Notes: generated by a model from the letters alone, not told the origin. A DNA stretch of 64,000 nt from an uncultured Bacteroidales bacterium (GCA_902798385.1 CADBWK010000008.1:13723-77722), one strand, 5' to 3'. Positions 13,062-47,800 are shown, counted from the stretch's first letter. A program made the numbers and translations.

Positions 13062-16000
13062 ATGAAGACTAATAATTATTATATAAGGAGTCTGTTTATA
13101 GCGCTAATCGCTACGTTCGGTGTATCATTATTTGTACTTGCTGAAGGAGAAAAATCAGCCCCGGGTGGTTGGTATGACGATCCGGTTGTGTCGGTAGCAT
13201 GGAAAGACTATGTTACTTTCTCTACTGTGTATAACGGCAAGCGTTACTACCTTGGCGTGGACACCGTGGCTGCGAAAGCTACGCCAACTCCGGAATATAA
13301 GATCATGGCCTATAACGAGCCTAATTACGCAACGATGTGGATTGCCGGTCGTTTGTGGAGTTCGACGGGCGGCGAGCTGACCAACAAGGACTACACCCGT
13401 ACGATTCAAAGCGTTTGGACGCAAGAACGCTTACCGGGAAAGGATACACTCTATCTGGCTTTAGGTGATCCTGAGATTGCCGGTCAGCCCTATAACACTT
13501 TAATCCTCAGTTCTATCGGTACGATGTGGCATACGGCGAAGGATATCTACGCCACCGGTCGGTATATTCAGGGTTACATGTATTTCTATACCGAAGAGAG
13601 CGGTGTAGATAAATACCGTTACCTGACGTACGACCCGTTATATGAATTTGATCGTTTATTTGAGGCCCGTCCGTCGGAGTCGCAGCGTATATCGGTATGG
13701 GATCGCAAGACTGGCGATGACTTGGTGTTCAAAACCAATCCGACTTCTTATACCTTTGGACTGAAAACGAGCGCTGATACCACAAAGATTCGTTTTTCTT
13801 CTCAGGTGTCTTATTACCCGCATGTGGATCGTTTCCGTAGCCGCTATGCGCGTGTGGATGTCTATACGTTTGAACCGACAGTGATTGATAACCAGGAAAC
13901 GCTATTGGAAAAGCCTTATAGTATGGGCGGTCATTATGAGTGGAAATCCAACCCGCGTGGAGAAGGCGCTTACAACGGCCAGTCTCACATGAAGATGTAC
14001 TTGTGGACGGGGGAAATGTCGGCAGGTAGTCCGGTGATGGAATGGCGTGACTCCACCTTGTTATGGGTGAGCGATACGAAGAATCAACTGATTGATAACG
14101 AATGGGTTGATACCATCTTCGTTATCGGTAAGTCTCCATTTGATCGTCCTTCATGCCGCGTATTACGCAAAACAGGGGATGGTGCTCCGGCGGAAGGCGA
14201 TTATTTAGACCACGTCGATTGGTTATATGTGCATTTGCGCATCAATGGCAAATGGTATAAGGATTCCATCCAGTTGACGCGCGAGACTTTCCATGTGCGT
14301 TATGCTACTACCCTTACTATGGACGAAAGTCCGGGTGGATGGGAGTTCCCGTATTTCTATGATGGAAAGAAAGCGGATGGTACAACGCCTATTGGTACCG
14401 AAGGCACCAAAGATTTTGATATCAAAGCCCTCTACAGTGTAACGGTAGATACATTGCATTATAATGGCGCTTACGAGACAGGTGGTGTTTTGGAGGAGCA
14501 AACGCTGGATCTAACGGCACAAACGCCTCAAGAAATATCGAGCGTCAAATATAATGAGTTAATAGTCAACGCGTACGAGCCGGGTACAACTACCACGTGC
14601 TCGTGGTTGACTGCATCTACACCGGATAAGAAAACGGTACGCCTTGTGGCGAATGAGTACAATCCCTCTGCGACTGTAGATCGTATCGCCGAAGTACATT
14701 ATACCTATCGTTATCTGCACTCTACGCAGGAAGGTGACTGGTCGGAAGTGACGCGTATCATCTGGGTTTCACAGTTATGGAAGAGTTCCGGTGTGGCGGG
14801 CCTGTATGCTTTCAGTCATAAGCCGACAGCAGAAGAACTACAAGAGGTATATGAAAAAGACTATACCATCTATGCCATTCCGGATCAGAGTCTGCCATTA
14901 CCGCTCCATCGTGATCACTGGGGCTACTACCGTTGGTTCATCTATGAAGGTGATTACAAGGATCGAGACTTGGAGCATGACGACACCTGGGATTTTGGAT
15001 TGAATGCACCGACCAATGTGCGAAACCAGAACTTCATGCCTATTAACTACGCTACCTCTGCTGCTTCGCGTGGGCGTTGGGATGTTATTCGGGATATCAA
15101 TGCGGGTAATACAGAGTTCGAACCGGCTGCCGACAAAGAGCACTTTGAGGTGGGAAAACGAACGAAGATCCCATCCGTATATTATCCGAAGAGTATTACA
15201 AAGAATGGTAAGGTAGCATGCGACGTCAGTGCCTATTATGACATTCAAACTACCGGTTCTTCCAGTCCGGCATATGTGAAGCAGAACCTGACATCTCTGA
15301 CCGAGCCGACGCTGAGTTACCGTAATGTGTACAATATCCGTCCGGCAAAAGAACAAGCCGATAAATTGGCTACGTATAAAGGCAATGGTAGTGGTGCTAA
15401 TTGGATGGAGGAGCATACGGTCATTGTGCCGGCAGGACGTGAGTTTTCTTTGCAGCAGCTATATCCTGTGCAAAAAGGTGATGCTTCGATTGACACGGTG
15501 CATCTCCAGTATATCTATTATGCCAATCCGACACAAACGGATGCTAAAATCGGTACACGTGATGGTTTGACGGATAAACAACTGGAGGAGAATGACTATT
15601 ATGCTCGTATCGGTAAAGAAAAAACAATCGAGGAGAAGTATGTGCTAACGCTACGCACAGCTTCAGAGTTGCGCGGCATGACCAACGGTACCTCCAAAAC
15701 CATCATCCTTGTTAACCCACGAAACAATACAGGATATATTTTAGGAAAAGGAGCAAGACAGATTCCTGTCGCACTTCCTATCCCTAATGGGGCAACTACT
15801 AAAGCTGCTTTCAAAGATTCGCTAGAGAAGAAATTAAATGACGGAGGTACCTATGATTCGTATTTTATTACTATCAAACAAAACAAACGTTCGGGAGATT
15901 CTTATCATAATTTCTTATTTGGCGATTTCACACTCTATAATCTATACACAAGTAGTGCCGGAGAAGGAGAGCATAGAACGCAAAATATCCGTTGGTATGA

Positions 16001-19000
16001 CGGATGGGCTACCGGTAGTGAGGAATTCCGAATCGATGCTTACCCCGATGGTGGCAGTAAAGCAGATATGCCGGCTGGTTTTAGTTCGGGTGATTTAATT
16101 ACCATATGGACTACTCGCTGGGGATACACCGGTTATTTAGCTTCCGGTCAGTGGTCTGGTGGTACGTTTGACTATCGTATTTACAGACAAAGTAATAATA
16201 ATACTGCCTATCAAGCTTGGCTTATTTATGAAGTATCTAAAACAACAGCGCGTACCTATAACGAGACCCCGCGATGGGAGAAGTACAATGGCAGTACCAG
16301 TAAATGGGAGGAAGTGGAACGCGCATCAGACGAAGACCCTGATGGTTATACCATGCTGGCCGATGGTTCGCTGGCTTTTGATGATAATGTGCACAGAGCA
16401 GCAAATGAGACCATTCAGTACCGTCTGCGTACGGAGCATTTTCAACTTGCGAAGTTTACCGTCGTAACGCGTAACCCGAACTCTGAAGGTCCGCGTAACG
16501 ATGAGGCTATCATATCCGAAGAAGATATACAGAGTAACTACGAGACCTTGTTTACCCTTGGCCTTGAGAACTTTCCTGCACCTGCTTCGGATGAAGTTAC
16601 GGCTTATTACCACAAGTTGCCGTGGAATACGACGGAGTTGAGTTACCACTACCCTGTCGGAGATGAAGAGAACCAAATACCGGCAAACCGTCGCGTGGAT
16701 GGAACGTCTATGCTGCCGATGAAAGGTGAGTACTGCTTCCTTAATAAGTTCGTTGATCCGACCAACCCGAGTCATATCATCTCGGCGCGCGATAACTACT
16801 TCCTGTGCATCCAAGCGGCAGAGAAACCGACTACAATCTTCAATTTTGTCTATCCGGGTTTGACCTGTTCCAACCAACAGGTATTCCTTGGTTTCGATCT
16901 CTGTAATCCGGTGGACAATAGTTACGAGCCGCAGATTACCGCAGAACTGCAGGGTACGAAAGATGGGGGCTCAACATGGACTGCTATCTATCGCTTCAAG
17001 ACCGGTGAGATTAAGTGTAACCGTGATGGTAATCCTACACATGATTGGTGGCAAACGATATTGCCGATTGACCGTAAGTTGGTATCGGACTATGATTATT
17101 TCCGCTGTACGGCATCCCTTACCGGCACAACAGAAAGTAATGCATATATACTCATTGATCGTATGCGTTTTATCGAGCGCTCACGTTCCTTCTCTGTCTT
17201 CCAGAATAAATCCACCTGTATTAGGGACGACTCTGTGTATGTACAGGCGCGTATTGATTACACTGCGGATACTGCGCTCTATAAGACAGGCAAACTGGTG
17301 GCATACCAATTCCAAAGATGGGATAACACTGCTAACAGCGGAGCCGGAGGCTACGTGCCGGTATTGGCAAGTAAGACGACCGATGGAGGTGTGACCTATA
17401 CGCAGTTAACCAATGAGACTACGCCGAAGGCACAAATCTTCCCGGGGTATATCAAGGATGCCTTCACGGCCACAGAGTCCGTAACAAAGACATTTTTGAA
17501 GTCCACCATGGGCAATGACTACGGCTATGTGCTTATTCCGGAGCGAACCTATAACCCGGATAAGAGTGACGATCCTTCCAAGACCTCTACTGAACGCGGT
17601 AAACTTATAGACCGTGCGCTTGAATTACTGGAGATAACCGGAGATCCAGCAGCTACTCGCAAGGCTGCGTTCCTCAATGAGACCGGCAACGTCAAGACGC
17701 GTGATGAGGTGACCAGCCAGAGTAATATCGATTTCGGTACGTACTCCACACCGCATATCAAGTCGTTCGTGAACGAAGGTACGGATTTGGCTCCGCATTG
17801 GGTTATCTACCTCAATACCCGTTTACCGATTAGCGCAACAGATAACCGCACCTTCCGTATCGCAATGACCATCATGAATAGCGTCGATGATAAACCGACC
17901 TTCGCTGATGAGAGCTGTGCTACTTTCCGTGTGATCAACATCAAGCAAGCAGCCGAATTGCAAGTGGATGGCACAACCTGGACAAACCATACCCGTGCAG
18001 AGATTGAGGCGGATGATGCCTCCGGCGATGCACTCAAACTGCTGGAAGCCAACGAGACCTATCGCGCTTCGATACACTTGAATCTGCCATCTCCGCTGGC
18101 CGGACATGCTGTGTTGAATACGATCTGTAAGTTCGATCTCATGCATGCGCACGACAGCGTGCGGGATAGAACGGATGATGATGCCAACTTGGCATTCGAG
18201 CGCCGCTACGGTTGTACGCGTGCTGAGTTCTCTGATGCAATGGAGACCTTCCGTTCGAACGACCCGGACAACCCCATTCGTGAGCAATACGACTGGCGTA
18301 AGGTGCGCCCGATTGATTTCGCTTGGTCTCAGGCAGATCCGACAGTATTGACACCTCGTGCCCGTCGCAAATACGATGTGATTAACAAACTTATCACGGA
18401 TGGTGTGTTGGAGCTTGGTCTGGACTATCGTGATATCTACATGGGCGATAAGATGGATAGCTATTTCTATCTTATGCCGGTGCCTGCCAGTGGTTGGTTT
18501 ACTTGGGATGATGCTGGCCCATCCGGTCAGGATACGCTTGTACATGCTACAATCTGTAATGATACGATCTGGTTGGAGTTGCACTCTAAGGAACCGCTCG
18601 CTAAGTTGCGTTTCGGTTACGATAGCCGTGTGGGTGATACGTATATTGTACCTGTGATCCGTGCGTCGAAGACCGATGCGAATGAGCACCTAAAAGTGCG
18701 TATATCGGATATTACCCATACGGCATCCTCCGGTGCGGTCATCGGTTGGGACTCTACCTATATCGTGGATAGTAACGACCCCGACTGGTTAGCCGGAGGT
18801 ATATCTTTCCGTTACCACCAGGATCGTATCGTTCAGGAGCGCATCTTTGATGAGTACTATAAAGTACCGACCTCCGGAACAAAAGAAGAGAAAGAGGCCG
18901 ATGCCCATCGTTATGTGATCTTCCGCCCGGTAACAAGCGCCTATATCGATACGCTGAAGATGACCGATTGCCCGTGCTATGACTACCATGCCAATAAGAC

Positions 19001-21248
19001 AGAGTACAAAACGGGTACTACTAACGATGTTATGGAGCAGAAAGCCGCTACCGGTTGCAATAAATGGGGTGTCAAACCGCTCTTAAAGGGCGCTGCTGCG
19101 CACGAAGGAACAGCCGCACACGACATGCCTGGTTACCAGGTGGCGAATACTGCAGACTTTAGACTCAAACCTGGCTATTGGTATAAGTTCAAGACCGCTT
19201 TCTTCGATGTAAGTTCTACTATCAACCATGATGCCGGAGGAGATGGTACTTGTCTCGGACATGGCTATTTCATCGTAGCCGTAGCCCCGGATACCGTGCG
19301 TTGGACGCCGGCGAACCTCAGCGGTACGAACTACTGGAATGATGACTTGAACTGGACACCAGTCATGGCATCCAAACCGAGTGATGGCTTCAAAGCTATT
19401 GTGCCGATGGCTGATACGAAAGTGATCATCCCGCAGGTAGCCGAAGGACAACTGCCTGTCGTCATGGATTTGGTAGTGAATCAGAAAGACACGCTCGAAT
19501 ACGGCTACAAGCGCAATACATGTAAGGAGATACTCTTCAAGCCGAGTTCGCAGATGTTAGGTCAAGAGCGTCTGGAATACGAGAAAGCGTTCGTTGACGT
19601 GCTCTTCAAGACCGATAACTGGCAGACTTTCTCCCCGGCATTGAAGCATGTTAATTCCGGTGACCTGTACGTGCCGTTCAATGCGGCTACGTATAACAAA
19701 GCGAATCCGGCTACGGGTGCTTCTACGGATACCGTTGAGTTTGAGCCGAAGGCTTTCCCCTTAGGCATTACAAGCGGACTGACCTATAACCCGCGCTCGT
19801 ACCCATTCGCCTTCTACCAGGGCTTCTATAACTCTACCGTACGCGTAGCATTTAATAATACGGATGAGGACGGGAATCCGGTTGCTTACACCTATAGCAC
19901 CTCCAAGAACGAGGTGGATTGGGTGAAGACGAACCTGATCGATACGCTCTATCATCCGGGACAGGCCGCCGTCATCAATAGTTATGATGCGTATAATAAG
20001 GAGGGTAGGGAAATCGTTGTGTGCCTGCCGAAACCGGATAATACGTATTACACCTATGGCAAGAGTGGTGGCACCTATGCGGCCGGTCATTCCTATTCGA
20101 TGAAGAATGAGGACGGCGGTGCTCGTACGGCATCGGATCTGACGAAGAACCTGGCGTACGATAAGACGACCCTGACGAATGCTGGAGGCGAAGGCATTAC
20201 CTATACGCTGCATAACGCTACCGAATCGAAGATATTCTTCTTCGGTAACCCCACCATGGCGCTGGTCGATGTCTATCAGTTATGCGTGGATAACGCCGGC
20301 GTGCTGGAGCACGATGGTAGCGAGCATAAGTTCACAGCATACCAGTTGGCAGAAGGCTCGAGTTATACCGTCAAGCCTATCACGGCTCGCGGTCAGTATT
20401 TCATCGCGCCGCAACGTGCCGTAGGTCTGGTAGCCGATGCTGCTCATACTACATCCAAGACCCTTCCGGTTAAACTCACACCCGAAGCACTTGTAGCGCT
20501 GACAGGCGATGGTATGGTCGTTAGTCAAGAGGATATCAAGCCCATGCCGCGTCGTATGACCAATGACCAAGCGGTAAATGAGAAACGTCTCTATATCACG
20601 GCTGCTAACGAGACCGATGCCGGTATCCGAAAGGCTTATCTCACTCTGGGTGAACAAGAAGACGCTAGCCGCGGATTCCGCAAAGGCGAAGATGCGCTGT
20701 CCCTCTCGTCCGGTAAGCATTACTTCAATTATGGTGCGTTCTCGACACCGATTAGCCTATACACGATCGCTGATAACGAGGCCCTCATGATGGATATACG
20801 CGACACGCTGAACCGCGTACCGGTAGTGTTCTCGACGATTGATGCGAAGTTCGACATCAATAACTATACCCTCTTGACCTTCTCCATGACGGGCAATTGG
20901 GATAAACCGCTATACCTCTATGATGCCGTAAGTAACGACAGTGTGCTTATCCGAAATGGTCTGCAGATTGCTATCGAGACCCCGCTTAATGATCAGATTC
21001 GCTACTTCATTAACGGTTCTAAGCGCGTGACAAGTGAAGAGAACCAGCAAGGCACAGCGACGGGCATCGAGGAGGTAAATGACCAATTACCAAATACCAA
21101 TTACCAATCGGGTACCGTTATTTACGATGTACTCGGACGCAAAATTATGACACTGAACGAATATGACCTTATCTCCAATATCCATCTGCCGACAGGTGTA
21201 TATATCATACAACGCGGTAGTAATACGGAAAGGATGGTGATTAGATGA
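13062..21248 (+). CDS. Giant secreted surface protein G1 (2728 aa) with T9SS-like C-terminal tail
   Basis: Single uninterrupted ORF with signal peptide MKTNNYYIRSLFIALIATFGVSLFVLA. The C-terminus TVIYDVLGRKIMTLN...LPTGVYIIQRGSNTERMVIR resembles a Por/T9SS sorting domain. It is paralogous to G2. Confidence 0.9.
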   Translation: MKTNNYYIRSLFIALIATFGVSLFVLAEGEKSAPGGWYDDPVVSVAWKDYVTFSTVYNGKRYYLGVDTVAAKATPTPEYKIMAYNEPNYATMWIAGRLWSSTGGELTNKDYTRTIQSVWTQERLPGKDTLYLALGDPEIAGQPYNTLILSSIGTMWHTAKDIYATGRYIQGYMYFYTEESGVDKYRYLTYDPLYEFDRLFEARPSESQRISVWDRKTGDDLVFKTNPTSYTFGLKTSADTTKIRFSSQVSYYPHVDRFRSRYARVDVYTFEPTVIDNQETLLEKPYSMGGHYEWKSNPRGEGAYNGQSHMKMYLWTGEMSAGSPVMEWRDSTLLWVSDTKNQLIDNEWVDTIFVIGKSPFDRPSCRVLRKTGDGAPAEGDYLDHVDWLYVHLRINGKWYKDSIQLTRETFHVRYATTLTMDESPGGWEFPYFYDGKKADGTTPIGTEGTKDFDIKALYSVTVDTLHYNGAYETGGVLEEQTLDLTAQTPQEISSVKYNELIVNAYEPGTTTTCSWLTASTPDKKTVRLVANEYNPSATVDRIAEVHYTYRYLHSTQEGDWSEVTRIIWVSQLWKSSGVAGLYAFSHKPTAEELQEVYEKDYTIYAIPDQSLPLPLHRDHWGYYRWFIYEGDYKDRDLEHDDTWDFGLNAPTNVRNQNFMPINYATSAASRGRWDVIRDINAGNTEFEPAADKEHFEVGKRTKIPSVYYPKSITKNGKVACDVSAYYDIQTTGSSSPAYVKQNLTSLTEPTLSYRNVYNIRPAKEQADKLATYKGNGSGANWMEEHTVIVPAGREFSLQQLYPVQKGDASIDTVHLQYIYYANPTQTDAKIGTRDGLTDKQLEENDYYARIGKEKTIEEKYVLTLRTASELRGMTNGTSKTIILVNPRNNTGYILGKGARQIPVALPIPNGATTKAAFKDSLEKKLNDGGTYDSYFITIKQNKRSGDSYHNFLFGDFTLYNLYTSSAGEGEHRTQNIRWYDGWATGSEEFRIDAYPDGGSKADMPAGFSSGDLITIWTTRWGYTGYLASGQWSGGTFDYRIYRQSNNNTAYQAWLIYEVSKTTARTYNETPRWEKYNGSTSKWEEVERASDEDPDGYTMLADGSLAFDDNVHRAANETIQYRLRTEHFQLAKFTVVTRNPNSEGPRNDEAIISEEDIQSNYETLFTLGLENFPAPASDEVTAYYHKLPWNTTELSYHYPVGDEENQIPANRRVDGTSMLPMKGEYCFLNKFVDPTNPSHIISARDNYFLCIQAAEKPTTIFNFVYPGLTCSNQQVFLGFDLCNPVDNSYEPQITAELQGTKDGGSTWTAIYRFKTGEIKCNRDGNPTHDWWQTILPIDRKLVSDYDYFRCTASLTGTTESNAYILIDRMRFIERSRSFSVFQNKSTCIRDDSVYVQARIDYTADTALYKTGKLVAYQFQRWDNTANSGAGGYVPVLASKTTDGGVTYTQLTNETTPKAQIFPGYIKDAFTATESVTKTFLKSTMGNDYGYVLIPERTYNPDKSDDPSKTSTERGKLIDRALELLEITGDPAATRKAAFLNETGNVKTRDEVTSQSNIDFGTYSTPHIKSFVNEGTDLAPHWVIYLNTRLPISATDNRTFRIAMTIMNSVDDKPTFADESCATFRVINIKQAAELQVDGTTWTNHTRAEIEADDASGDALKLLEANETYRASIHLNLPSPLAGHAVLNTICKFDLMHAHDSVRDRTDDDANLAFERRYGCTRAEFSDAMETFRSNDPDNPIREQYDWRKVRPIDFAWSQADPTVLTPRARRKYDVINKLITDGVLELGLDYRDIYMGDKMDSYFYLMPVPASGWFTWDDAGPSGQDTLVHATICNDTIWLELHSKEPLAKLRFGYDSRVGDTYIVPVIRASKTDANEHLKVRISDITHTASSGAVIGWDSTYIVDSNDPDWLAGGISFRYHQDRIVQERIFDEYYKVPTSGTKEEKEADAHRYVIFRPVTSAYIDTLKMTDCPCYDYHANKTEYKTGTTNDVMEQKAATGCNKWGVKPLLKGAAAHEGTAAHDMPGYQVANTADFRLKPGYWYKFKTAFFDVSSTINHDAGGDGTCLGHGYFIVAVAPDTVRWTPANLSGTNYWNDDLNWTPVMASKPSDGFKAIVPMADTKVIIPQVAEGQLPVVMDLVVNQKDTLEYGYKRNTCKEILFKPSSQMLGQERLEYEKAFVDVLFKTDNWQTFSPALKHVNSGDLYVPFNAATYNKANPATGASTDTVEFEPKAFPLGITSGLTYNPRSYPFAFYQGFYNSTVRVAFNNTDEDGNPVAYTYSTSKNEVDWVKTNLIDTLYHPGQAAVINSYDAYNKEGREIVVCLPKPDNTYYTYGKSGGTYAAGHSYSMKNEDGGARTASDLTKNLAYDKTTLTNAGGEGITYTLHNATESKIFFFGNPTMALVDVYQLCVDNAGVLEHDGSEHKFTAYQLAEGSSYTVKPITARGQYFIAPQRAVGLVADAAHTTSKTLPVKLTPEALVALTGDGMVVSQEDIKPMPRRMTNDQAVNEKRLYITAANETDAGIRKAYLTLGEQEDASRGFRKGEDALSLSSGKHYFNYGAFSTPISLYTIADNEALMMDIRDTLNRVPVVFSTIDAKFDINNYTLLTFSMTGNWDKPLYLYDAVSNDSVLIRNGLQIAIETPLNDQIRYFINGSKRVTSEENQQGTATGIEEVNDQLPNTNYQSGTVIYDVLGRKIMTLNEYDLISNIHLPTGVYIIQRGSNTERMVIR
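21082..21109 (+). repeat. In-frame heptamer array (ACCAATT/ACCAAAT)x4 in G1
   Basis: accaattaccaaataccaattaccaatc encodes QLPNTNYQS at the start of the C-terminal tail. Confidence 0.9.
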
Positions 21249-21679
21249 GGAGATTGATAGGTATATTAGTTTGTTTATGGGTAGCGACAAGCCTGTTTGC
21301 CGTTACATACCAACCTTGCAAGCCGGCTGCCTTCCGGACGACTTCTGCTTACGTGGCGCCGATGCAGAGCGCATCGCATACGATGAGTATGAATACGCAA
21401 CGTCCTTTGGCCTCCGGTTCGCTCTCCGCTATCAGTGCCTCTAATTTCGAGATGCTGAATAGCGAAGGAGGTTGGTGCGCAGCTACATCGGCTACATCCA
21501 CCAGACCGCAAGTCCGTAAGGGCGGACGTCCGGATGAAGACGAAGGAGGTGACAATGGTAATCCTATCGGTGTATATGATAACCACTCTCCTATCGGCGA
21601 CACGCCGTGGATACTATTCGGACTACTACTGATAGCCTACGGAGCTTTCAAATGGAAAAAGAAAAGTGCAGAAATCTAA
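21245..21679 (+). CDS. Small exported, C-terminally membrane-anchored partner protein S1 (144 aa)
   Basis: The ATG overlaps the G1 stop (ATGA at 21245-21248). It has a signal peptide, a Ser/Thr/Pro-rich middle, an acidic patch DEDEGGD, and then SPIGDTPWILFGLLLIAYGAFKWKKK. It is a paralogue of S2. Confidence 0.75.
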   Translation: MRRLIGILVCLWVATSLFAVTYQPCKPAAFRTTSAYVAPMQSASHTMSMNTQRPLASGSLSAISASNFEMLNSEGGWCAATSATSTRPQVRKGGRPDEDEGGDNGNPIGVYDNHSPIGDTPWILFGLLLIAYGAFKWKKKSAEI

Positions 21680-21698
21680 TGTTTCTGCATTTTTTTTG
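21666..21698 (+). terminator. Rho-independent terminator after S1
   Basis: TGCAGAAA-tctaatg-TTTCTGCA followed by T8. Confidence 0.8.
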
Positions 21699-23415: not shown

Positions 23416-23447
23416 CTTGCGTATATGCGCGAAAAAGCGTACCTTTG
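23416..23447 (+). promoter_or_regulatory. Promoter for giant gene G2
   Basis: CTTGCGTATATGCGCGAAAAAGCGTACCTTTG. The -7 box ends 22 nt before the ATG at 23469. Confidence 0.75.
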
Positions 23448-23468
23448 CAGTTTGTAACGTGTAAAGGT

Positions 23469-26400
23469 ATGAAGTCTGTTATGAAAAGGTACATATTTTC
23501 ATTGTTTTTTATTGTATGTGCGCTCGTTCGAGTGCATGCAGTTGGATGGTTACCGGTAGAAGGTGGTTTAGTTGTGAATCTGAATCAAGGAGATCAGATT
23601 CTTCTTTCCGTGTGGTTAGATGTGAACAACAATGGAGTAGAAGATGAAGGCGAGGAATACTTCATCAATAACTATAACCGCTATACAGGCGGTCGATTCA
23701 ACTATGGGGCCGGTTTGTACCTCAAACTGATTCCGCAAGAAGAGGGAGTATCTGCGGCTTCGACGATGTCTAAATGGACGGTAGGCGCACCCTTGACACG
23801 TAGTGATGATATCAATGGTAGTGGAGGACAAGGGAAACACGCCAATTTCGACCCCCTTGGCGGTACATATTACACGATTTGGAATGACGGAAGAACGCTG
23901 AGAACGCAGAAGCCGAGAAGTTCGGACGCTAGTAATTACCAATTCGTTGGTAACCTGACACCCGATGGTGTGAGTGGTTACGACGATCAATATTCCTGCG
24001 ATGTGGTATTCGTGATTCCTACAGCCCGCTCTACCACCACTTCATTTGACCCCAACAAGACCTTAACAACCAGATACGGTCGTACCGACCAAGATGCGCA
24101 AGGTCGATTCAATGGCAAGACAGGTACGGGATTTTTGGGTATGACGTATCGCGAGGTATACATGATGGTACTCCCTCGTTATAACGCCCCGGTATCGTAT
24201 GCCAATACGGCCTTGGTGACATTTAACACGACGACATCAACTATTCCGAATAATACATGGAGAAATGCAGGAGAAGTAGCTCCCGGTAAGGCAGCGTTTG
24301 CTTTTGCGGACACCGATGGCAGACCCTATTACCATACGACCCGTACCGTATTCCGCCTCTATATCTTGAATGACCCGATTAACAGTTGCAGCAGTTATTT
24401 CTTTGCGACCGACGAGCAGGATTACCGAAAATACCGTACGGGACCGGGTGGAAAACAGAATTTGAAATGGGCGGATAGTACCGATTTGACGAAGAGCTAC
24501 ACGATGGACCACCTGACCTGTATGAGTCGCGTAGGTAGCACGCAATATTACCAGACGGACCTGATGTATGTCCCGATTCCGGACAGTACGTATTTCTACG
24601 TAGGTTATAACGACGACTATAAGGCTGCTATTTCGGGCCAGACGATGGGTTCAGGAGGATCACACTCGCAGTTCACAAAGATACGCGAACTGCCGATATT
24701 CGGTCTGGAGGACACTTTGAAGGCGCCTGCCGGCGCATGTGGACGAATGGTGGCGGATACGACCTCGTCTGTAGATAACCTGGATGTGAAATTCAAGCCT
24801 GCGGGCTTTTTCCTGAAGGTAAGCCCCACGGGCACAAACGTTCAGATGCGCCCAAATGCGGATAGTACCATATGGACGTGCGAGGAGATGTGGCATATCA
24901 CCGATGCGTATGCGGCGATGCAGATCAAAGCGACGACGTTCTCCGGTCCGGAGTTTAGCGCAACCGACGAGGGAAAAGATATCGCGGGATGGAGCGTGAA
25001 TGTGGTTGGAACATCAGTGCCTTTAGCCAGCGACCACAGCCAGCATGTAGACGGTGATATGGATGGTTGGGCGCGTATCTACGCCAACCGATCCGAGCCA
25101 AACGGATACATGGAGTTTATCATGGCGAACCCGGATCATCATATCCACTACGATAACAACAAGTTGTTAGGAAACCAAGTACCCGACCAGTATCCGGAGC
25201 AAGGAAAGACGAAAGTCATAGTTGAGGAACCGCGACTGGTAGGCGGATTTAACTTTACGGGCTGGACGAGAAATCCGGACGGAACGGGCGGAACTTATCA
25301 TCCGGGCGATGAAATTGACCTAAAGGACGAAGGAACAGTATTAACTCTCTATGCACAGGGAACCTATACCGGTACGTATCATGTGGCCTTTTCGTTTGAG
25401 CATTCGAACGGCAAGCGCTATTTCCTGACGCAGCCTGTAGGTTCAGCGGTGCGTTATGCACGTGCTCGCCCTGTAGGCAACTGGACCGACACCTATCAGG
25501 GTATGTCGGACGCCTATAATACCGAACCGAACTACATCTCAACATACAAGTTGCTCACAGGGGCCACTGATTGTCCCCGCTGCTCCCCGGGCGAGTATGT
25601 GCTGGATCCATGTCGCGAGATGCGACATGGTGCGGTTGACTCGTTGCTTTTCTACGAGAACTTTGCACCGGATAATGAAGTGTATTTAGGTTTGTACTTT
25701 GACGATAGGAGTACGCCGTTCAAGGATCCGGTCACTATCGTCGCTAATAACACCTGGGCGGGTTTGTTTACCTCCAAAGAAGGTTGGCCCGACTATAGTG
25801 TAGCGGATGTGCAGAATACCAAGCTAAAGTCTGAGTACTATCTGCACCGTGTGGATGGCAATATCACCCGTGACCCGCGTCCCAGCCGCGACTCTTCGTA
25901 CGTGAAGTACAACGAGGCGCTCGACCAGTTCGACGGTGTGGAGACGGCAGAGGAAGCAACGACCTTCCAGATCTCGCGTGTCCGCGTGGCGGATGAGCAT
26001 TATGTCGTGCTTCCGGATACCTCGCATGCCTGGAACGATACGATTGAGTTCGGCTATCATCATGGCGAGCAGGTACGCGAACAGGTATGGACATCGCTCA
26101 TCGGTAAGCAGCTGCTGGCGGTAACGAAGGTAGGGGATGACACGGTCTATTTCCACCCGAATCCCGACAAGATCATCACGAATGCGAACGACCTATATCT
26201 ATCTTCGGACTTCCGCGTATCGCAATACTTCACGCTCATTCGCGACAGTCGTGTAAGCGCTGCTTTGGAAGAAGGCGATAGTGTGACTACGGAGACCACG
26301 AGCAACTACTGGCACAATAACATCGTAAGCGGTCTCAACAGCCCGATCGATGTAACGGATGGTGAAGGTCATTATATTGATATCATCGATACCTTCCGCA

Positions 26401-29400
26401 TCACGCTCAGTCATGGCGGAATCAGCAAGATCAAGGAGTACTACGGTCTTTGGAAGGAAGGAGCACCGGGACTGCACGTGAGTGCGAGCGGTATGGAGCG
26501 CACGCGCAATGTCATCGTGCGTACGAAGACCTATCACTACGGTCCTACGCACTCGCATCTGGAGCTGATACCGGAGTTCAAAGAGTATTCTTTCAATCCC
26601 ATGGCTGGTGTGAGTCGCACGATTAATTTCATCCTCAGGAAAGTGAACACGCATCGGTTGGTAGATGTAAATGACCATTCGGTAGGCGAAGAAGAGATCG
26701 TTTCTATTGATACGATCACTGCCAGCCTGGACCTCGATCCGGCGAATTGTACGTTCGCTTCAACCAAAGCATCTCCGGGCACGTATTTCTCTGTTAGTGA
26801 GGCCGACGATCATCACGTAACCCTCACGACGCGCGAGATCAATAAGACGGCTAACAATCTGGATACCCTCATTATCTCGACAACCGTCACAATCGAAGAC
26901 GTAGCGTATCCCGCATCGGTCCGCGTGCCGTTGGTTCAAACCTCGTTGGAAGGAGATGAGTTGATATGGTCCGTAGTAAGTGGCACCCAACGCTATTATA
27001 TCATGGCGGGCACAGGCGGCTTGATCTTCCGTAAATATAATGTAAGCAATTCGACGCTCTATAAGGAAGGAACGACTAATGGGGTGCTCAAAAAGGGCTC
27101 GAAAGATGCAGAGAACAGCGACAATCAGTATATCACGCCGTGGCACTTTAGCTATCATCCGGATAACGCAGATCAATTGGCATTGAAAATCGAGTACGGC
27201 GTCAATCGCCATTTCAAGATGCTTGGCGATGCGACGGGCTCAAAGGCCGATATTCATGCGTCTGACTCGTCTTTCCTCTACTATGACTATGTGGATGTCT
27301 ATACCAATGACAACGCCAATGAGGAGGAGTTGGTAAAACTGCAATTCGGTACCAAATGGTTGAAGTTTACGCAGACAGGCGGTAGCGGCGCAGAATTGGT
27401 ATTGGTAGATACGAAAGAAGAGGGATCTGTTTTCTCGTGGAGTTATCTGAAGCGAGAGTACAACCTATACCAGAAGCATGGCTATCCCAACCGCGGCGGT
27501 AACACGAATAACAAAGTCGATTCCGTTACCTTCGATTATAACACCAATATATCCGTGAAAATTCAGTCGCGCTATAAGGCATATAAGGATTTCTCGATGC
27601 TGGTAGGCAATAATGTGGTTTATTGCTGTCGCGAAGATGAGGAAACGATCGCCAACCTGGTTGATCCCGCTAAAGAATGGAGGACGCGTTACGAAATCGA
27701 ACGTATCGCAGATGCGCGCACATTCGATAGCGGATCCACGCCAAGCCCTGCAGTCAGTGGACTGAGCTTCTCGCTGAGTACGACCGATCTGATCTCGACC
27801 ATCTCGACCTCAAGCGTGAAAACCAGTCCGAGAAATGTAAAGATCGGCGGCAAATACGTAAATATCGTCGATACGCTTCATGTGAAGCTCTCGTTGCAGG
27901 ATGGTGCTCCGGAGTATTACTTCCGAAATGACTGGAAAGACTTCAAGAGCATCGACGATGCAGAACTTAAGATTCCGCTGATTCGTAAGACCTACCACTC
28001 CGCTAACTACGACTCGCTCGTATGTACGGTAGAAGGCGATGAGTATAACTATACCTTCCCCAATACGCTTCCGGAAGGAGAGCCTGTATCCCATACCTTC
28101 ACTCTCGGAACGCTGCGGCGCTACGGTGAGTTCGTATTAGACGTAGATAACACGCAAGTAGCGACAATAGATCCGCATGAAGTAGACGTGACGGTATCCG
28201 GCCTCATGAACCTATCCAACTCAGCAATGGCGGAAATCCGACTGATGGACGAATTCGGTCACACGCCGAGTTGGTGCGAAATAACCGGAAAGACCGAGAA
28301 TACGATTACCGTCCAATGTACGGAGGACGGTATCCGCTCGCCTCGTACGGTATATGTATACATCGTCTATATCATCATGCTGGACGAGATGCGTATCGTG
28401 ACCGAGCGTTTGGCTATATCCCAACCGAGTGTGTACCAGTACGCAAATAACCAACACCTGGTACATACATCCGGCGCATCGGGAGATCCGTTGGACGTAC
28501 TGGGTATGCAGCAGGTACACGAGAACAAACGTATTCTCTACTATTATCCGGACCAGGATGTAGAGTTGCCGGTCCGCGACAGCCACTTCTTCGGTTGGTG
28601 GAGATGGTTCCGCGAGGGAGAAGGAGAAATAGGTGATTCCGATATCCCGGCCGAAGCATGGCGTCAACAACCGCGAAATGTAGATAAGAAATTTAACTAT
28701 CCTTTCCGTATCATCGGTGACTCGGTGAATGATCCGGAGAATCCGGGTAAGAAGAAACTGGTAACGATGGGTCGTTATACGGTGTTCCACTACAGGTCAA
28801 AGGACTATACCGATGCAAAGAAAGATCCTCCTTGTAAGACGGTCACGGTAGTTCCTCCTGTTACGGAATTCGGATTGGCAACCAAACCAACCTATACATA
28901 TGCGGTTGAAATCAGTAACTACTACGATAACCTGCCGATGTCCGCATCACAGAAGAACCAAGTAGATGTCAATAAACTGGATACCATGACCGCCATTTAT
29001 GAGCCGACCTTGTCACTGCGCGAGGTATTTGAGTTACGCCCGTGGACGGAGATGGCTGCACGGATGGAGGGATTTAAGACAACGATTGGTTCCGGCGAGA
29101 GAGCGGATACATCAGTGGTATGTCCGTTAGCAGATGAGCTTTACATGGAAGACCATGTGATGATGGCACCGCTGGGCAACGAATTACTGCTCTCCACGGA
29201 GCAACGCTATAAAAAGGAAAACCTGGCAGCAAATAAGCACTCAGAGTCGTTGTTAGGTTACTATATGCGCGACGATAACTGGAATGAGTGGAGTGAGAAC
29301 AAAGTACGTCAAGACACCATGATCTGGTGCGGCGGATGGGATGCAAACTGCCAATGGTATACCTACGATCCGAAGACGCAGAAATACTCGGAATGTACGC

Positions 29401-32400
29401 ACTCGATCACAACGAGTGACGACTTCCTGCAAGTACCGGCTAAGGAGAATATCCCTGCGGGTAAGGAGTTCGATACAGTTTATTACTGCTTGCGTGCACG
29501 GAGTCAAAAGACGACAGGTACGCCGGGATCGACTGAAACAACAGTGGATGGAGATTATATGTTCAATATATGCCGCTACAAGCTCATTTACCATCAGCCG
29601 ACCAAATACGGCCCGTTGGTCGAAAACCAAGGCAAAGCGCTGATCACCAATGAGGAGATTGCGCAAAACTACGAGGTACTGGAGCGACTGAACTTCGATT
29701 ACAACCAGCCGGGACCCGAATATACGGTTTATCCGCATCCGTTGCCCTGGGCAGATGCTTCGTACGGCTATACCTATCCGGAGACACCGGATCTGCCGCA
29801 CAACCGACTGCACGAGCACTCGGATTTCCCGAACCACGGCGAGTACGGACTGATTAACCGCATTCCGGAGGCATCCCATTGGGGCGGTAATGTGACGTCC
29901 TACTGGCGTCCGATAGAGCAACACGGAGGAGCCGAAAACGGCTATATGATTTATTGCGACGGTATGTCCTCATCCGGTCAGGTAGCTGCCCTCTCGTTGA
30001 CAACGCATCTATGTGCCGGTCAGAAGATGTTCTTCTCGGGCTACGTATGCAACCCGAGTAACCAGACCGGTAAGTCCGATCCGAACTTCACCTTTGCCGT
30101 ACAGGGTTCGGTCAACGGAACGGATTGGGAAGATATCACTTCGTATACCACGGGAGGTATCAAGCCGTCGAATCCGAGCAAGTGGAGCCAGATCTATTTC
30201 CCGATTATATTCAACGAGGACATCGATTATAAGCATTTCCGCGTGCGGATCTATAATGTATCGTCAGACTGGGATGGAAACGACTTCATCATTGATGATA
30301 TGTGTATCTTCGCAACCAAGCCGCCGTTGATCGCCTATCAAGCCAACACGGCATGTAAGGAGAAGAGCGAGGAGGAAACCCCATCGCATATGATCTTGCG
30401 TGTGGACTATCAGGGTATCACAGGTGAGGGATACAACGACTCTACTGTATGTTATACCGTCAAATGCGATAGCGCCGTAGGGGGGACAGGTTTCGTACAC
30501 ATGCTGGACGACTATCTGGACGAACAGACGAACCCCGGCAAGCCGGGAACGACAGATCCGGATACGATATACGGACGGTTGTTTATTCCGGGTAAACTGT
30601 ACGAACCAACGGATCCGGATTCGATCTTCGTCAACATGAACGAGTTGATCGATACCTTCAATGTATCGAATGGTGTATTCAAAGAAGGTTATATCTACGA
30701 GATATTGGAAGGTGATATCCGTCCCGTGAAATACGTCGTGCATAGCGCCTATCTAAATGCGAAGGATACGTTCACGGTACATATGTCGGCTGCCTATAAG
30801 GATATGTTGAGTAGTATCTGCGGTATGACGAGTTACCTGAAGGTAAGTAACATGATGGTGCTCGAACTGAACGGCGAGGAGGTGCCTGACATGGCGCAGA
30901 ACGATCTTTGCGCGAACGCAACGTATGATATCGGTTTGCGCGTGAAGGGTTCGCTCTATCTTGATAGTGTCGCGCCGATTAACCTGAATGGAACTTGTGT
31001 CAACGACTGGTTGCTGTATGGCGATACCGCTGAGGCGACGAGTGAGGCTACCTACGGCTATAAATACAGCGATATCGTGAAGGTAGTGAAGGACATCCTG
31101 CGTTGCGAGCCGAAGGGAACGACCAATGCCAACCAGTTTGCAAAGAACATGGCAGCAGTCAGCCGAGACGAGATGCTACGTATCCAAAAAGCAGAGAAGT
31201 GTACCCTCTCAGTAGAGACGCATCCGTACGATATCTTGACTGATCTGGTGGATAACGGTTTCCTGACGCTCTATCAATCGAGCATGACCGCGACCGTTTA
31301 TTCAGGCGATTCGATACAATATGTGATCTTCCCGATACTCGGTACAGGTACGGACACCAAGCAACACTCCAGTGTGGAGGTTTGTCCATTACCGATATTG
31401 ATTAAACTCAAACCGGATCCGGAATCAGCCAAAGCACCCCTCATCGTAGGTGGGCTGAATCGCGACCCGAGTGAGATGAATCAACCGGTCATTGTGCTGG
31501 CCGATGCGACCCGTGCCAACCAAGAGATCACGCTTAAGGTAGACTCTATTATGGGCCGCGTGGGTATCAAAACGGTAGAGCTGCTTTCTACCGAAGACCC
31601 GCTCTTCCGCGAAGGAATCCACTCGTTGGCTTTTGTTCCGGATCGAGACTATCCGTCCGGGGATTACTACATCAAAGGCAATACCATCACCCTGCATCCG
31701 GCGAGCAGCAATAACTATCAGATGCGTCCGGGCTATAGCTATACCTACGGTATTGTGATGCAGACCATTCTCGGTAGGGATACTTTAGATGGAGGTTGTG
31801 AAGTGGGAACGATTCCTTTCACCCTCTCCGTTGTACCGAATTACCTGCGTTGGGATCCGCAAGATACGGAGAGCAATGAATGGAATACCCCGGGCAACTG
31901 GATTGGAATTGACCAGCAGAATAGGCCGATTCATGACAATGCACGCTTTGCGCCGCTCAATACTACCGCCATCATCATCCCGGAGATAACCGACGGTAGA
32001 CCTTATCCGGAACTGCCGGACCTTACCGCTCCAGCTACCTATGACTCCGTTAAACAGGTGGGATTCCAATATAATAAGTGCGATTATATCCGCTTCATGC
32101 CGGGTGCTGCGATGAGTCAGCAGCAACGCATGGAGTATTCCCAGGCCATCATCGATATGCCGATGCCGTATAACGAGTGGGCCTTCCGTTCTGCTCCTGT
32201 CAAGGGTATGATCTCCGGAGACCTCTTCATGGCGAATGCCGACCTGCATGAAGAAACCTCGCCTTGGGAGGTAGGTCCGTTCGATGCGACCGGACGTACG
32301 CATAAGACGGGCAATGCTTCCTATTGGCTCTCGCTCTATAGTACGACCACCGTTCGTAAAACGAAAACGGAGTCTGAAGAACGCACAGATGATGCGGCAT

Positions 32401-33614: not shown

Positions 33615-34051
33615 TGCAGCATAAATTCCAAATCATCGCATGGCTTTTCGCCATCTGGATGCTATGTAGCATCACGCCGGTGAACGCCACGCCGCAGGCT
33701 TCTTACCCTGCGGCATGGAGCACCACGCCTACGTTGAGCACTGATGCCTGTCCCGCGTACCAGTTCCGCTCCACCTCCTCGTTGCCGCTCGTCGTTGGTA
33801 CGACTTCCTACACCGGTTCTATGTCCTATACCCCGGGCGCAAGACCCGGAAATATACGTCGCAATACCCCCGGGTGGGGAGACCCGGACGACGATGACGA
33901 TGAAAACCTGCCGCAAGGTGTCGTTCCGGTCACCCCTATTGGCGATACGCCGTGGATCCTGATAATGTTATTTTTATTTGCGTATATCGGAAAAAAGCAG
34001 TATCTTTGCAGCCGATTCGTAAAGCATGGATTTTTTAGACCAACTAAATAA
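33611..34051 (+). CDS. Small exported, C-terminally membrane-anchored partner protein S2 (146 aa)
   Basis: The ATG overlaps the G2 stop (ATGA at 33611-33614). It has a signal peptide, the segment FRSTSS, an acidic patch DPDDDDDE, and then TPIGDTPWILIMLFLFAYIGKK. Its 3' end overlaps the uvrD promoter and start. Confidence 0.7.
   Translation: MMQHKFQIIAWLFAIWMLCSITPVNATPQASYPAAWSTTPTLSTDACPAYQFRSTSSLPLVVGTTSYTGSMSYTPGARPGNIRRNTPGWGDPDDDDDENLPQGVVPVTPIGDTPWILIMLFLFAYIGKKQYLCSRFVKHGFFRPTK
33977..34008 (+). promoter_or_regulatory. Promoter for the helicase gene, embedded in the S2 coding region
   Basis: TTTGCGTATATCGGAAAAAAGCAGTATCTTTG. The -7 box ends 17 nt before the ATG at 34026. Confidence 0.7.
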
Positions 34052-44850: not shown

Positions 44851-47800
44851 TTACAGTCGAATTATTTTCTGCCCGTTGACGATGTATATACCCGGGGCAT
44901 CCGGCAGGGTGTTGTACCTACGTCCTAAGATGTCGTAGATACCACTCTCGCCGACAAGGCTGGTATTGCCCTTCTGCTCATCGGGCAGCTCTTCGTCACC
45001 GAAGAGAACCGGTATGTACTGCGGATCGCTCTTATACTCCGGTGCTCCGGCTCCTCCGGTAGCACGATAGTACACTTTGTTATGCAAGACGTAGCGGTTG
45101 TTGCGTTGCCAGAGGGACTCGAGTGCATCAAACTCCTTATTATAGGTGGCATTGATGTAGAAGCCTATACCGGTCGTAGCCTGTTCAGCCAAAGGCGCTG
45201 TTACCACGCCGGTTGCGCGGTCTATCGTTACGTTAGTAGCAAACGGCAAACCGAGTGTATAGACATCATGCGAAGCATCCGCAGCCAGCATCTGTTCCAG
45301 ATATGAACCCTTGAAGACGCAAGATACGGGCGTGGAAGGCGAGGTGCTTGGCAGGGTCAGCGTCAACGTACCACTCTCATCCTTGACACGGATGATGACC
45401 GGTGTTCCGGCAGGAACGAACTTACCTTTGAGATAATCATTGGTAGCAGGCACTTCCACCGGATGAACACCATCGTCATACCACTGAGAACAGGTGTATG
45501 CATTATAGGTTGCACCACCGCCATCGGCAGGCAGGAGCACATCGAACGGCGCATAGAAAGTAGCGTAATAATAGCCGTCACCACCGTTATGGGTAGCGAT
45601 TTGCAGCGGCATCTCACCATTACCAGCAGTACCGGTCTTCTGCACAGGTTTCAAGCACCACTTGGCATCATCTGTCGGCGACTCGTGATAGTATCGCAGA
45701 TCGTAGATACTGTCTGCCACAGACTGATCGTAGTTGAGGTAACGTCTCGTAGCCGGAGCAGCTCCATCGTGGATCAGCAGTACTGCGCCACCGATATCCA
45801 TAAGGGAGAAGGTGATGGCATTGGCTGAGTTGTCGGACATGACTGCCCGCTGTTTCTTCGAGGTGGTAGTACCATTGTTGGCATCGCCATTCGGATTAGC
45901 AGCCACGTAGAGTCCTTGCGTTTGGATCGTCGAGCGGGGATTGCCGTCCAGCGTTGTATTGCCGTTGAAATAGAAGATAGTGGACGGATCGGTCTCGGTA
46001 GGATCGATCGGCACATCACCACGGGTGGCGGGGGTAATGGTAAAGCCGGTATTTAGGTCATCCTCGTCTCCGTCAAAGACAGCCGAGACACCTTCCTTGC
46101 TAAAGAAGTGCATCGGGATTCCGCCGCTCACGTGCGTTTTCTCGATATCATGCAGATAACCGCTGGCGTAGCGAACAGGACTGATGCCGGACACACCGGG
46201 TTGGCTATGCATGCGGTAGTAACCCGGAGTATAGTGGACGATGTTGGCATCGTTGTACACCACATTCTGGATATCGATGATCTTTCCACCTGCGACCGCT
46301 GTCTCATACGCCGTCTTACCACCATCCGTCAGACCACCGACATAGCCTGCACGCTCGTAGTACGGCTCCAGCAGGTCCATCTCCAAACCGAACCGCCAGT
46401 CACAAGGCGTGGTGCTGAGTTTGGTGTAGTTATCAGAAGGATCGCGGTACACATAATATTTCGTTGCACCGATGTTGACTACAGGATGTACACGGAAATA
46501 ACCGGGTACGTCTCCGGAGACGAGTTCGAAGATCTCATAGCCCGCCGGATAAGAGGTCGGTTTTTCCGTAGTAGAGGGTTCTGCCAACAAGAGGTTCTGA
46601 CCTTCGATGGTGTCACTCATGGTCATTACGTTATGTATACCACCGCTATTCTTGAGCATATAGCGGTTATACATCTTGAAGCCATATACATCGCCGAGCG
46701 GTGTCCAGATGTAGTCATTCGTATAATGCGTCTCACGTCCAGCCATCGATTGCAGTCCCCACGCGTTGGTGTAGTGCGCCAGATACGGCGTGGCACCACT
46801 CTGCGTTTCGAAGGTGTACCACAGGTTTTGGTCTGTACTGGTCACGAAGCCCAGACCGGTGTTAGTCGCCAAGTTTTGGTCGAACGAATAAACGATATTG
46901 ACTACCACATTCTGGTCAATCAATTGCTCATCGGACATCAATTTATCCAGCTTCAGACCCTTATACTTATTATTCATTTCTGTATAAGGCTGACCTTCTT
47001 GCGCGCCATGATGGTAGACGCCCTCTATATAGAACTCGAAGGTACAGTTCGGACGCAAGAACTCATTGGGTACGACCAGTTCGTCGCCGATACTTACCGG
47101 ACCCACGTCCTTGCAATAGGTGTACGACTGGCCATTCCATGTCTCCGTCGTACCTAACTGGTATTTCTCACCGGCAACGTGTGTGCCTTCGCCTGTATTG
47201 ACGGACGTCAAATCACGCTGGGTGGTACCGTTAATGGTCTTCGTTGTGAGGGTACCGGATTCAGTAGCACGATAAGCGATATCAACCGTCTCACCGGTAT
47301 TGGCGATGATCAAGTGATAAATCAAGTCATGGATAGAGAGACCAAATAAGATGTACTTCGTCGGATCAGTAGTGACCGTAGTCTGACCATATCCGCTGAG
47401 GCGATCGGTAAGTCCTGTCTTCTGCAATATACCGTAGTCGTAACCGGTTTTCTTTAATAGCATGAAGGTCGGAGCGCTCCCCTCAGCTACCAGTGTTCCG
47501 GTACCATTCGCATAACTACCGCCTTTATGCTTGATCTTCAGGGCATATGGGTCATTTCCGGTGAAGTACCATATGAACTCCGGATCGCCGGAAAGGGTAT
47601 GACTACCACCGTCATCTATAGCATCGTATATACCATCTGTTGGAGCGCTATCCTTCGCCTTCATCATGTTATCACTATACCAAACGATATTGTACGGCAG
47701 TCCGCCGTTGATATTCATCGCCACATCGATAGACGACGGGTTGCGTGCTACTTGACCTGTACCGGTTTCATTACGCATGTTCGGCACCTTAAACGAGGTC

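Follow-up and report, generated by a model that had tools for sequence, protein, structure and literature searches.

The 64,000-nucleotide stretch of DNA analysed here, referred to as the window, originates from an uncultured Bacteroidales bacterium (GCA_902798385.1 CADBWK010000008.1:13723-77722). It contains two small genes, S1 and S2, located immediately downstream from genes encoding the giant proteins G1 and G2, respectively. S1 and S2 are members of an undescribed family of small envelope proteins of about 120-170 amino acids (aa), designated the S family, and the genomic context of these proteins is the strongest signal; S subtype and giant subtype co-diverge. Each S protein comprises a hydrophobic N-terminal signal sequence, a predicted disordered region of ~95 residues containing short linear motifs, and a C-terminal module. 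As judged from sequence, this module resembles a sorting tag but is devoid of the comparative-genomics hallmarks of one, so that its assignment as a sorting signal is only partly supported. The reading that we favour, with moderate confidence, is that S is a cargo-specific accessory protein with a retained inner-membrane anchor, the module being specific to the family and not a general sorting tag.

The S family and its pairing with giant genes

The extent of the family was assessed by an exhaustive HMMER scan of 1.84 billion representative sequences with a combined S profile (E ≤ 0.001), which retrieved at least 483 sequence clusters. The best 150 of the 483 profile matches were all 73-190 aa in length, and most of them aligned over nearly their full length. 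Searches with the individual proteins returned 58 clusters for S1 (38-96% identity) and 22 more for S2, all of 97-180 aa. The C-terminal motif is thus not limited to the two paralogues of the window, a restriction that would have spoken against the sorting-signal reading of an earlier note on this DNA. No match to S1, S2, or the S profile was detected in Pfam, NCBIfam, or the PDB sequences, and a literature search on the motif strings found nothing, including any paper on the S-giant gene pair. The obligate association of a family of small anchored proteins with a single family of secreted giants is therefore new, its parts being of known kinds.

The profiles of the S1 and S2 subfamilies are homologous over their whole length (hhalign probability of 99.2%, E = 1.5e-19). 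By BLASTP, only 18 residues around PIGDTPWIL align between S1 and S2 (E = 5e-7), and the earlier statement that the two proteins are poorly conserved outside the motif has to be corrected: the motif stands isolated in the pairwise alignment only, an impression that arose because a single divergent pair had been compared. Nor is the motif uniquely conserved, since the blocks FRSTSAY and SAISASNFxxLNSEGGxCY are conserved to about the same extent within the S1 subfamily. The other conserved blocks of this subfamily are the signal peptide, a basic RRGRP, an IG dipeptide, and SP[VI]GDTPW followed by the helix. In the S2 subfamily, the middle block is PAAWRTTPTLSxD instead, and TP[VI]GEP is located ahead of the helix. 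The FRSTS block is common to both subfamilies, and the S1-specific block (residues 59-78) is absent from S2 and co-varies with the type of tail of the giant. The description of S1 and S2 themselves was borne out: both are intact ORFs, in which a hydrophobic N-terminus is followed by FRTTS or FRSTS, a middle rich in Ser, Thr, and Pro, an acidic run that reads DEDEGGD or DPDDDDDE, [ST]PIGDTPW, a hydrophobic stretch of 13 to 14 residues, and lysines. The acidic run varies across the family and is often Gly-rich among S1-type members.

The AlphaFold model of S1, based on a 48-sequence alignment, has a mean predicted local distance difference test score (pLDDT) of 58 and contains only two helices, at residues 2-17 and 122-143, and a four-residue turn at 69-72. 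The first helix coincides with the signal-peptide block, which is kept as MRKIIGILVCL across the alignment of the S1 subfamily. The second has a block-mean pLDDT of 81-84 over residues 121-140. Residues 30-103 are mostly below a pLDDT of 50, which points to a disordered periplasmic segment in this model. The presence of a conserved cysteine at position 10 was considered as a possible sign of a lipoprotein, a reading that was rejected since only 9 residues precede this Cys and no lipobox is present.

As a side observation, the near-invariant SAISASNFExLNSEGG stretch of the S1 block at residues 59-78, which is followed by xC with Cys78 at least 90% conserved, loosely resembles a double-glycine leader (S..E.L...GG), but it is internal to a Sec-exported protein.

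The vicinity of S genes was inspected over about 10 kb on each side in loci L001 to L019, which were obtained from metagenome look-ups and from nine metagenome-assembled genomes (MAGs) of rumen Bacteroidales or Paludibacteraceae, and in new loci obtained by a motif scan. The scan of the genome collection was performed with the LNSEGG pattern only, yielding 9 S1-type loci, and is not informative on the species range of S2-type genes. The hosts of the S-bearing MAG loci were rumen Bacteroidales, and S was present in one or two copies per genome. An open reading frame (ORF) for a giant of 1900 to >3350 aa was located directly upstream from S in nearly all of the ~25 loci with readable upstream sequence; a long upstream frame was also detected in the new metagenome loci L087, L107, and L117 and in L026. 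The exceptions were L013 and L014, in which the upstream gene was called in two pieces, L050, L126, and L139, in which the upstream gene was unresolved, and several loci in which the upstream ORF was truncated by the contig end. The stop codon of the giant and the start codon of S overlapped as ATGA in 14 of 14 S1-type pairs with a resolved junction, as was also the case for S2 of the window. In contrast to the pair itself, the flanking genes varied from locus to locus (UvrA/PheS, Mur ligase, CysS/TsaD, integrase, or YqeY).

Two types of tail were found in the giants. The first, with the consensus ...LPTGVYIIxRGxxTERxVI[RK] followed by the stop codon, is the G1 type; the G1 orthologues of the S1-type loci among L001-L012, as well as those of L087 and L107, have ...LPTGVYIIxRGxxTERxVIR ahead of the stop codon. 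The second, ...VKxIxNxxVxIxRxGxxYTxxGQ[KR][VI]x followed by the stop codon, is the tail type of G2 and is common to the giants located upstream from S genes of the S2 type and of other non-S1 types. A giant with a tail of the LPTGVYII type preceded each of the 13 LNSEGG-type S genes, and a giant with a tail of the VKxIxNxxVxI type preceded each of the six other S genes with a resolved upstream frame. Tails of the G1 type score 19.3-26.2 bits against the model of the T9SS (type IX secretion system) type A C-terminal domain (TIGR04183, Por_Secre_tail), for a cutoff of 23, in 8 of 8 cases, one of which is above the cutoff. For G1 itself, the last 130 residues score 21.5 bits against Por_Secre_tail. 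No Por_Secre_tail match was obtained with tails of the G2 type, and G2 matched no Pfam or NCBIfam model, including in its tail any T9SS model.

G1 and G2 are paralogues, with 26% identity over the last ~640 residues and two further blocks of similarity. A third giant encoded in the window, G3, is related to neither G1 nor G2, and its gene has no S gene after it, indicating that S goes with one family of giants and not with large T9SS cargo in general. Surface giants normally have recognisable repeat domains. The three giants of the window (2700-3400 aa) are unusual in this respect, as they have no Pfam match at E ≤ 0.01, and G1 has no match among PDB sequences. NCBIfam likewise contains no family for the giants, the weak T9SS tail match being the only one obtained. 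The AlphaFold model of the conserved C-terminal 701 residues of G1, based on a two-sequence alignment, was unusable (mean pLDDT of 26.9). The possibility that the giants are polymorphic toxins and S the cognate immunity protein was considered and rejected, since no toxin domain was found, the giants carry a secretion tail, and S is exported and disordered.

Table 1. Positions of the S and giant genes in the window and of the parts of S1 and S2.
Feature	Position	Strand	Remarks
S1 gene	21245..21679	+	144 aa; ATG overlaps the G1 stop codon as ATGA; ends ...NHSPIGDTPWILFGLLLIAYGAFKWKKKSAEI before the stop codon
S1 predicted Sec signal peptide, aa 1-19, MRRLIGILVCLWVATSLFA	21245..21301	+	Basic n-region, then hydrophobic core; putatively cleaved
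S1 FRTTSAY block, aa 30-36	21332..21352	+	F30 invariant; T33, S34, and Y36 at least 90% conserved
S1-subfamily-specific block SLSAISASNFEMLNSEGGWC, aa 59-78	21419..21478	+	Nearly invariant alignment columns
S1 juxtamembrane element PIGVYDNHSPIGDTP, aa 107-121	21563..21607	+	Upstream IG and core SP[VI]G-x-x-P motif
S1 hydrophobic segment WILFGLLLIAYGAF, aa 122-135, predicted transmembrane helix	21608..21649	+	AlphaFold helix 122-143
S1 basic tail KWKKKSAEI and stop codon	21650..21679	+	Same DNA forms the A-rich arm and loop of a terminator-like hairpin
S2 gene	33611..34051	+	146 aa; overlaps the G2 stop codon as ATGA; carries ...VTPIGDTPWILIMLFLFAYIGKKQ...
S2 predicted signal peptide	aa 1-26	+	Sequence reading
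S2 element PAAWSTTPTLSTD	33707-33745	+	
S2 FRSTS	33764-33778	+	
S2 acidic run	33881-33904	+	
S2 TPIGDTP	33932-33952	+	
S2 hydrophobic stretch WILIMLFLFAYIG, then KK tail	33953-33991	+	
G1, giant secreted protein	13062..21248	+	2728 aa; ORF; upstream partner of S1; T9SS type-A-like C-terminus
G2, giant protein	23445..33614	+	About 3380 aa; true start uncertain, ATG at 23469; upstream partner of S2
G3, giant protein	44851..54555	-	3234 aa; no Pfam domain; T9SS-like end ...IYDILGRRYNTLPDAPGIYIVNGQKIIRL

The C-terminal module and sorting signals

The motif of the module is looser family-wide than in the two proteins of the window and corresponds to P-[VIL]-G-x-(x)-P, of which PIGDTPW is one variant; Asp or Glu is common but not invariant, and the S2 subfamily mostly has PVGEP. 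P[VIL]G..P followed by a hydrophobic stretch and a K/R tail was present in 212 of the 218 family members examined. In a set of 227 members, P-[VIL]-G was separated from the final Pro by two residues in 127 cases (mostly D-T, D-I, or D-V) and by one in 87 (mostly E). This Pro is usually followed by Trp, Phe, or Leu. The only invariant residues of the module are Pro, Gly, and Pro; in S1, they correspond to P116, G118, and P121, and I108 and G109 of the juxtamembrane element and Y132 of the helix are at least 90% conserved. The uncharged stretch, of 13-17 residues, is 13 or 14 residues long in 162 of the 227 members, with a median of 14 and a maximum of 17. The median tail is 10 residues long (5-31), and in most members the net charge over its first eight positions is +3 to +5. 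No constraint at the protein level acts on the tail past the first basic residues: in S1 the corresponding DNA is an arm of the terminator, and in S2 the frame beyond KKQ (33992-34051) crosses a promoter-like Bacteroidetes-type -7 box, TAtcTTTG, and overlaps the start of pcrA at 34026.

Three side observations concern the 3' end of S genes. First, the KKQYLCSR tail of S2 is also found in the unrelated S homologues P0078 and P0039, suggesting that the tails of many S proteins simply result from a frame that runs on into conserved promoter DNA. Second, P0035, P0020, P0015, P0011, and others are 47-60% identical to S1 overall, yet their last 29 residues are identical to those of S1 (PIGDTPWILFGLLLIAYGAFKWKKKSAEI; 21590-21679 in the window). 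This pattern suggests mosaic evolution or recombination, in which a cassette comprising the anchor and the terminator may be exchanged or retained while the periplasmic part diverges. Third, the segment 21882..21968 (+) is 86% identical over 87 nucleotides to 21612-21698, 270 nucleotides upstream, and covers the helix, the KKK tail, the stop codon, and the terminator hairpin. It reads ...HLSPRIAVIFALQLLAYGAFKWKKKSAEI before the stop codon, has lost the IGDTPW motif, and is preceded by in-frame stop codons; the near-identical contig L087 is the sole other place where the exact cassette occurs. The segment has the appearance of an S-type 3' end that has decayed.

Sorting signals are recognised as tripartite C-terminal domains of proteins that have an N-terminal signal peptide; their carriers are usually homologous only in the C-terminal region, or have the domain as an optional suffix, and the signals co-distribute with the processing enzyme, the gene of which adjoins the target when there are few targets per genome (PMC3237569; 10.1101/2023.06.07.544157). 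The likeness noted earlier on stands for the layout and not for the distribution. The S family displays the motif, hydrophobic helix, and basic cluster at the C-terminus in nearly all members and with a tight geometry, and the conserved hydrophobic N-terminus, which is helical in the model, would correspond to a signal peptide. Portability of the module and the presence of an adjacent enzyme were not found.

In every sample that was built, the module was found only in the S family. The best 150 of the 483 profile matches included no unrelated carrier of the module. In a local scan with hidden Markov models of 2835 open frames (window and 17 loci, ~354 kb), S genes scored 31-73 bits and the next match 9. 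A scan of a metagenome collection with the back-translated P[VI]GDTPW motif was used as a sample, not as a census. Among the first 120 matches listed, there were 8 in which the motif preceded a hydrophobic stretch and a basic cluster, with a stop codon close by; 7 of these were S-type ORFs and the eighth was the last helix of a five-helix ABC-2-type permease, a chance match. A word-indexed search with a profile restricted to the C-terminus, in which no more than 172 candidates were collected, returned 3 fragments of 38-57 aa and is a weak negative only, since it missed known members.

Curated models of sorting domains did not reach their thresholds on S members. Among 48 members compared with NCBIfam at E ≤ 10, 5 had a sub-threshold match to JDVT-CTERM (best E = 0.019), and one member each had a weak sub-threshold match to QVPTGV, PGAP-CTERM, and Heimdall-CTERM; several one-off weak matches to unrelated NCBIfam models were also obtained. 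There was no match to PEP-CTERM, GlyGly-CTERM, or IPTL-CTERM among these 48 members, and none to PEP-CTERM (TIGR02595) at E ≤ 1 for S1 or S2.

Since S is present in only one or two copies per genome, the gene of a dedicated protease would be expected to adjoin it. We concur with the earlier note that the window holds no sortase-like gene: no sortase, exosortase, rhomboid, or CPBP protein was found among the ORFs scanned, the neighbours being Rnf, FtsK, LolA, TrxB, an AraC-type regulator, PcrA, chromate transporters, a uridine kinase, a cation antiporter, and type-V-pilus genes. The same four classes of enzymes were not found in the flanks of ~20 loci with at least 4 kb of sequence (Pfam lists and multi-pass ORFs), in which the multi-pass membrane ORFs corresponded to CstA, DMT, Wzx, Wzy, and membrane-bound AraC proteins. 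In this respect, S differs from the JDVT and rhombosortase systems, since the enzyme gene adjoins the target in 16 of 17 JDVT cases and for single-target rhombosortases (10.1101/2023.06.07.544157; PMC3237569).

These observations bear on the possibility that the module is a true dedicated sorting signal ("PxGDxP-CTERM"), cleaved at or near P-x-G-[DE] by an unlinked intramembrane protease or transpeptidase. XrtF-type exosortases, rhomboids, and enzymes of the CPBP/Rce1 type would be the candidates, and the disordered S polypeptide would be released or transferred onto the giant, a lipid, or a glycan. The tripartite architecture and the signal peptide fit the definition of the class; Pro, Gly, and Pro are invariant while the rest of the family diverges below 30% identity; the hydrophobic stretch is short and of fixed length and is followed by a tail of +3 to +5; and models of sorting domains alone weakly match more than one S member. 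In addition, S2-type members read TPVGEPFILLL...KKKR, which we take to be one residue away from the canonical VPEP of PEP-CTERM. A further point for cleavage is that XrtF of Bacteroidota has no known substrate signal and that Flavobacterium mutants lacking it phenocopy T9SS mutants (PMC10936215). Nevertheless, we consider a cleaved signal unlikely, as the module is never found on a non-S protein in the samples examined, is never optional within the S family, matches no curated model at threshold, and has no enzyme gene in the flanks of the ~20 loci with at least 4 kb of sequence. Rather unlikely, too, is the more specific proposal that P-[VIL]-G-[DE]-x-P, the helix, and the basic tail form a new Bacteroidales-specific signal with a single client and an unlinked enzyme (exosortase F, CPBP, or rhomboid?), the released S being coupled to, or co-exported with, a giant T9SS cargo.

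A proposed retained anchor on an accessory protein

According to the reading that we favour, S would be exported by Sec, lose its signal peptide, and stay in the inner membrane as a type-I single-pass protein, the disordered part facing the periplasm and the basic tail facing the cytoplasm. Since the two genes are translationally coupled, S would be delivered to the membrane just as the C-terminal secretion domain of the giant is completed. There, as a cargo-specific accessory, it may tether the giant, act on it as a holdase, or pilot it towards the machinery of type IX secretion. Recognition or binding of the cognate giant would fall to the subtype-specific middle block, and contacts with common components, or the positioning of the anchor, to the FRSTS block common to both subfamilies and to the juxtamembrane PxG..P-helix module.

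This topology depends on the fate of the N-terminal segment. If it were an uncleaved signal-anchor, S would form a two-helix hairpin with a periplasmic loop, the module providing the second helix. The residue at position -3 of the putative cleavage site is often large and aliphatic, as in L-F-A ahead of V, which favours this possibility. The short basic n-region, the hydrophobic core of ~15 residues, and the conserved Ala at position -1 are typical of cleaved Sec signals, and a retained N-terminal helix is hardly probable; in either case, the remaining topology and the other conclusions would be unaffected.

The strict and subtype-specific pairing, the coupled translation, and the linear motifs of the disordered region, which are suited to binding, could also be accounted for if S were a membrane-anchored regulator, sensor, or inhibitor of its giant and not a secretion accessory. 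It could, for example, report accumulation of the giant in the periplasm to the cytoplasm or silence the activity of the giant until export. The presence of a membrane-anchored AraC-type regulator between the two modules of the window, and of a similar protein in L012, is in agreement with such a role. Against it, the cytoplasmic tail (5-31 residues) is unconserved and partly dictated by terminator or promoter DNA, leaving no room for a domain with a signalling function, most loci are devoid of the AraC gene, and the giants display no detectable toxin or enzyme domain. We therefore regard a regulatory function as distinctly unlikely.

Several points weigh against an accessory protein with a retained anchor. 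Any physical link between S and the giant is putative, and neighbouring genes would co-diverge anyway. The T9SS link is supported for the G1 type only, as G2-type tails match no T9SS model. A plain stop-transfer sequence would need neither the invariance of Pro, Gly, and Pro at the helix boundary nor a hydrophobic stretch so short and so constant in length; these features are consistent with recognition by another protein, possibly a processing enzyme. Finally, cleavage of the signal peptide is putative and was read from the sequence.

Other genes of the window, significance, and comparison with known systems

An AraC-family regulator of 391 aa with an N-terminal multi-helix membrane domain is encoded between the two G-S modules, directly upstream from G2 (22153-23328). 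A similar protein of 390 aa, with a membrane domain and HTH_18, is encoded in L012 (18128-19300), ~8 kb from the G-S pair. This AraC-family membrane protein could regulate the giants, but most loci lack it. The intergenic region between S1 and araC contains a direct repeat, ATTTTGGAAAAACGGACAAAATC, at 21745-21767 and 21778-21800 (91% identity), with a third element, AAACGGACAAAT, nearby; no Rfam family was detected in this region.

Two ORFs of the minus strand had no Pfam match, the first of 1524 aa (38056-42630), with an N-terminal membrane helix and an end, ...GIGYPF, typical of outer-membrane barrels, and the second of 277 aa (42631-43464), located after it and ending ...GVQKSF. The pair may encode a TamB/TamA-like or fused translocation-assembly protein. 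G3 is located directly downstream from genes for an Mfa-like fimbrillin, DUF5119, and DUF3575 (54600-58755, minus strand), which form a type-V-pilus-like operon.

We know of no described route by which Bacteroidota proteins of 2500-3400 residues, on leaving the Sec translocon, cross the periplasm and reach the translocon of the T9SS. The S family, which is coupled to the giants and co-diverges with them, offers a genetically tractable candidate for a cargo-specific inner-membrane accessory. Its module is also a clean test case for the rules by which sorting signals are recognised, since it is tripartite and strongly conserved, yet fails on portability and neighbourhood. Should the module prove to be cleaved, a new sorting system would thereby be defined, in a phylum in which exosortase F still has no known substrate, and a signal processed by an unlinked enzyme would be the first link of a sortase-like system to type IX secretion of giant proteins.

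The LPXTG/sortase, PEP-CTERM/exosortase, and GlyGly-CTERM/rhombosortase systems and the MYXO-, JDVT-, and Synerg-CTERM domains with their CPBP myxosortases share with S a Pro/Gly motif, a helix, a basic C-terminus, and a signal peptide. They differ from S in that their domains occur on unrelated proteins, whereas the S module is confined to one small family homologous over its full length, and S has no adjacent cognate enzyme despite one or two copies per genome. The S module also lacks the invariant Cys required by JDVT and MYXO and the PEP or GG motif. PEP-CTERM has a Pro-Glu-Pro motif, in place of which S has PVGEP or PIGDTP. GlyGly-CTERM (TIGR03501) combines a Gly/Ser-rich motif with a rhombosortase; S does not match this model, and no rhomboid was found in any flank. 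JDVT-CTERM has an invariant Cys in the motif and a DP inside the helix, and is found in Pseudomonadota with an adjacent CPBP protease (MrtJ; NF033191) (10.1101/2023.06.07.544157). S, which has no conserved Cys, Bacteroidales hosts, and no adjacent CPBP gene, is therefore not a JDVT-CTERM protein. Exosortase F is a lead only, as the window and the loci examined revealed neither XrtF nor an XrtF-associated gene.

The pairing itself has a counterpart among T9SS cargo. SprB is a giant T9SS cargo with an adjacent, co-expressed cognate partner, SprF, in a ratio of about 1:1, and SprF is needed for secretion and anchoring of SprB (PMC9143113). SprB-SprF and the other pairs of type-B C-terminal domain cargo and PorP-like proteins resemble the G-S pairs in that a giant is encoded beside a small cognate partner, with paralogous pairs in one genome (PMC9143113). 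The proteins involved are different: PorP and SprF are 14-stranded outer-membrane beta-barrels of the FadL type, whereas S has ~140 aa, is disordered by prediction, and possesses one C-terminal alpha-helical anchor, which points to the inner membrane, and giants of the G1 type carry a type-A-like tail, not a type-B one. SprB-SprF may thus be regarded as an analogue of the G-S pairs in concept.

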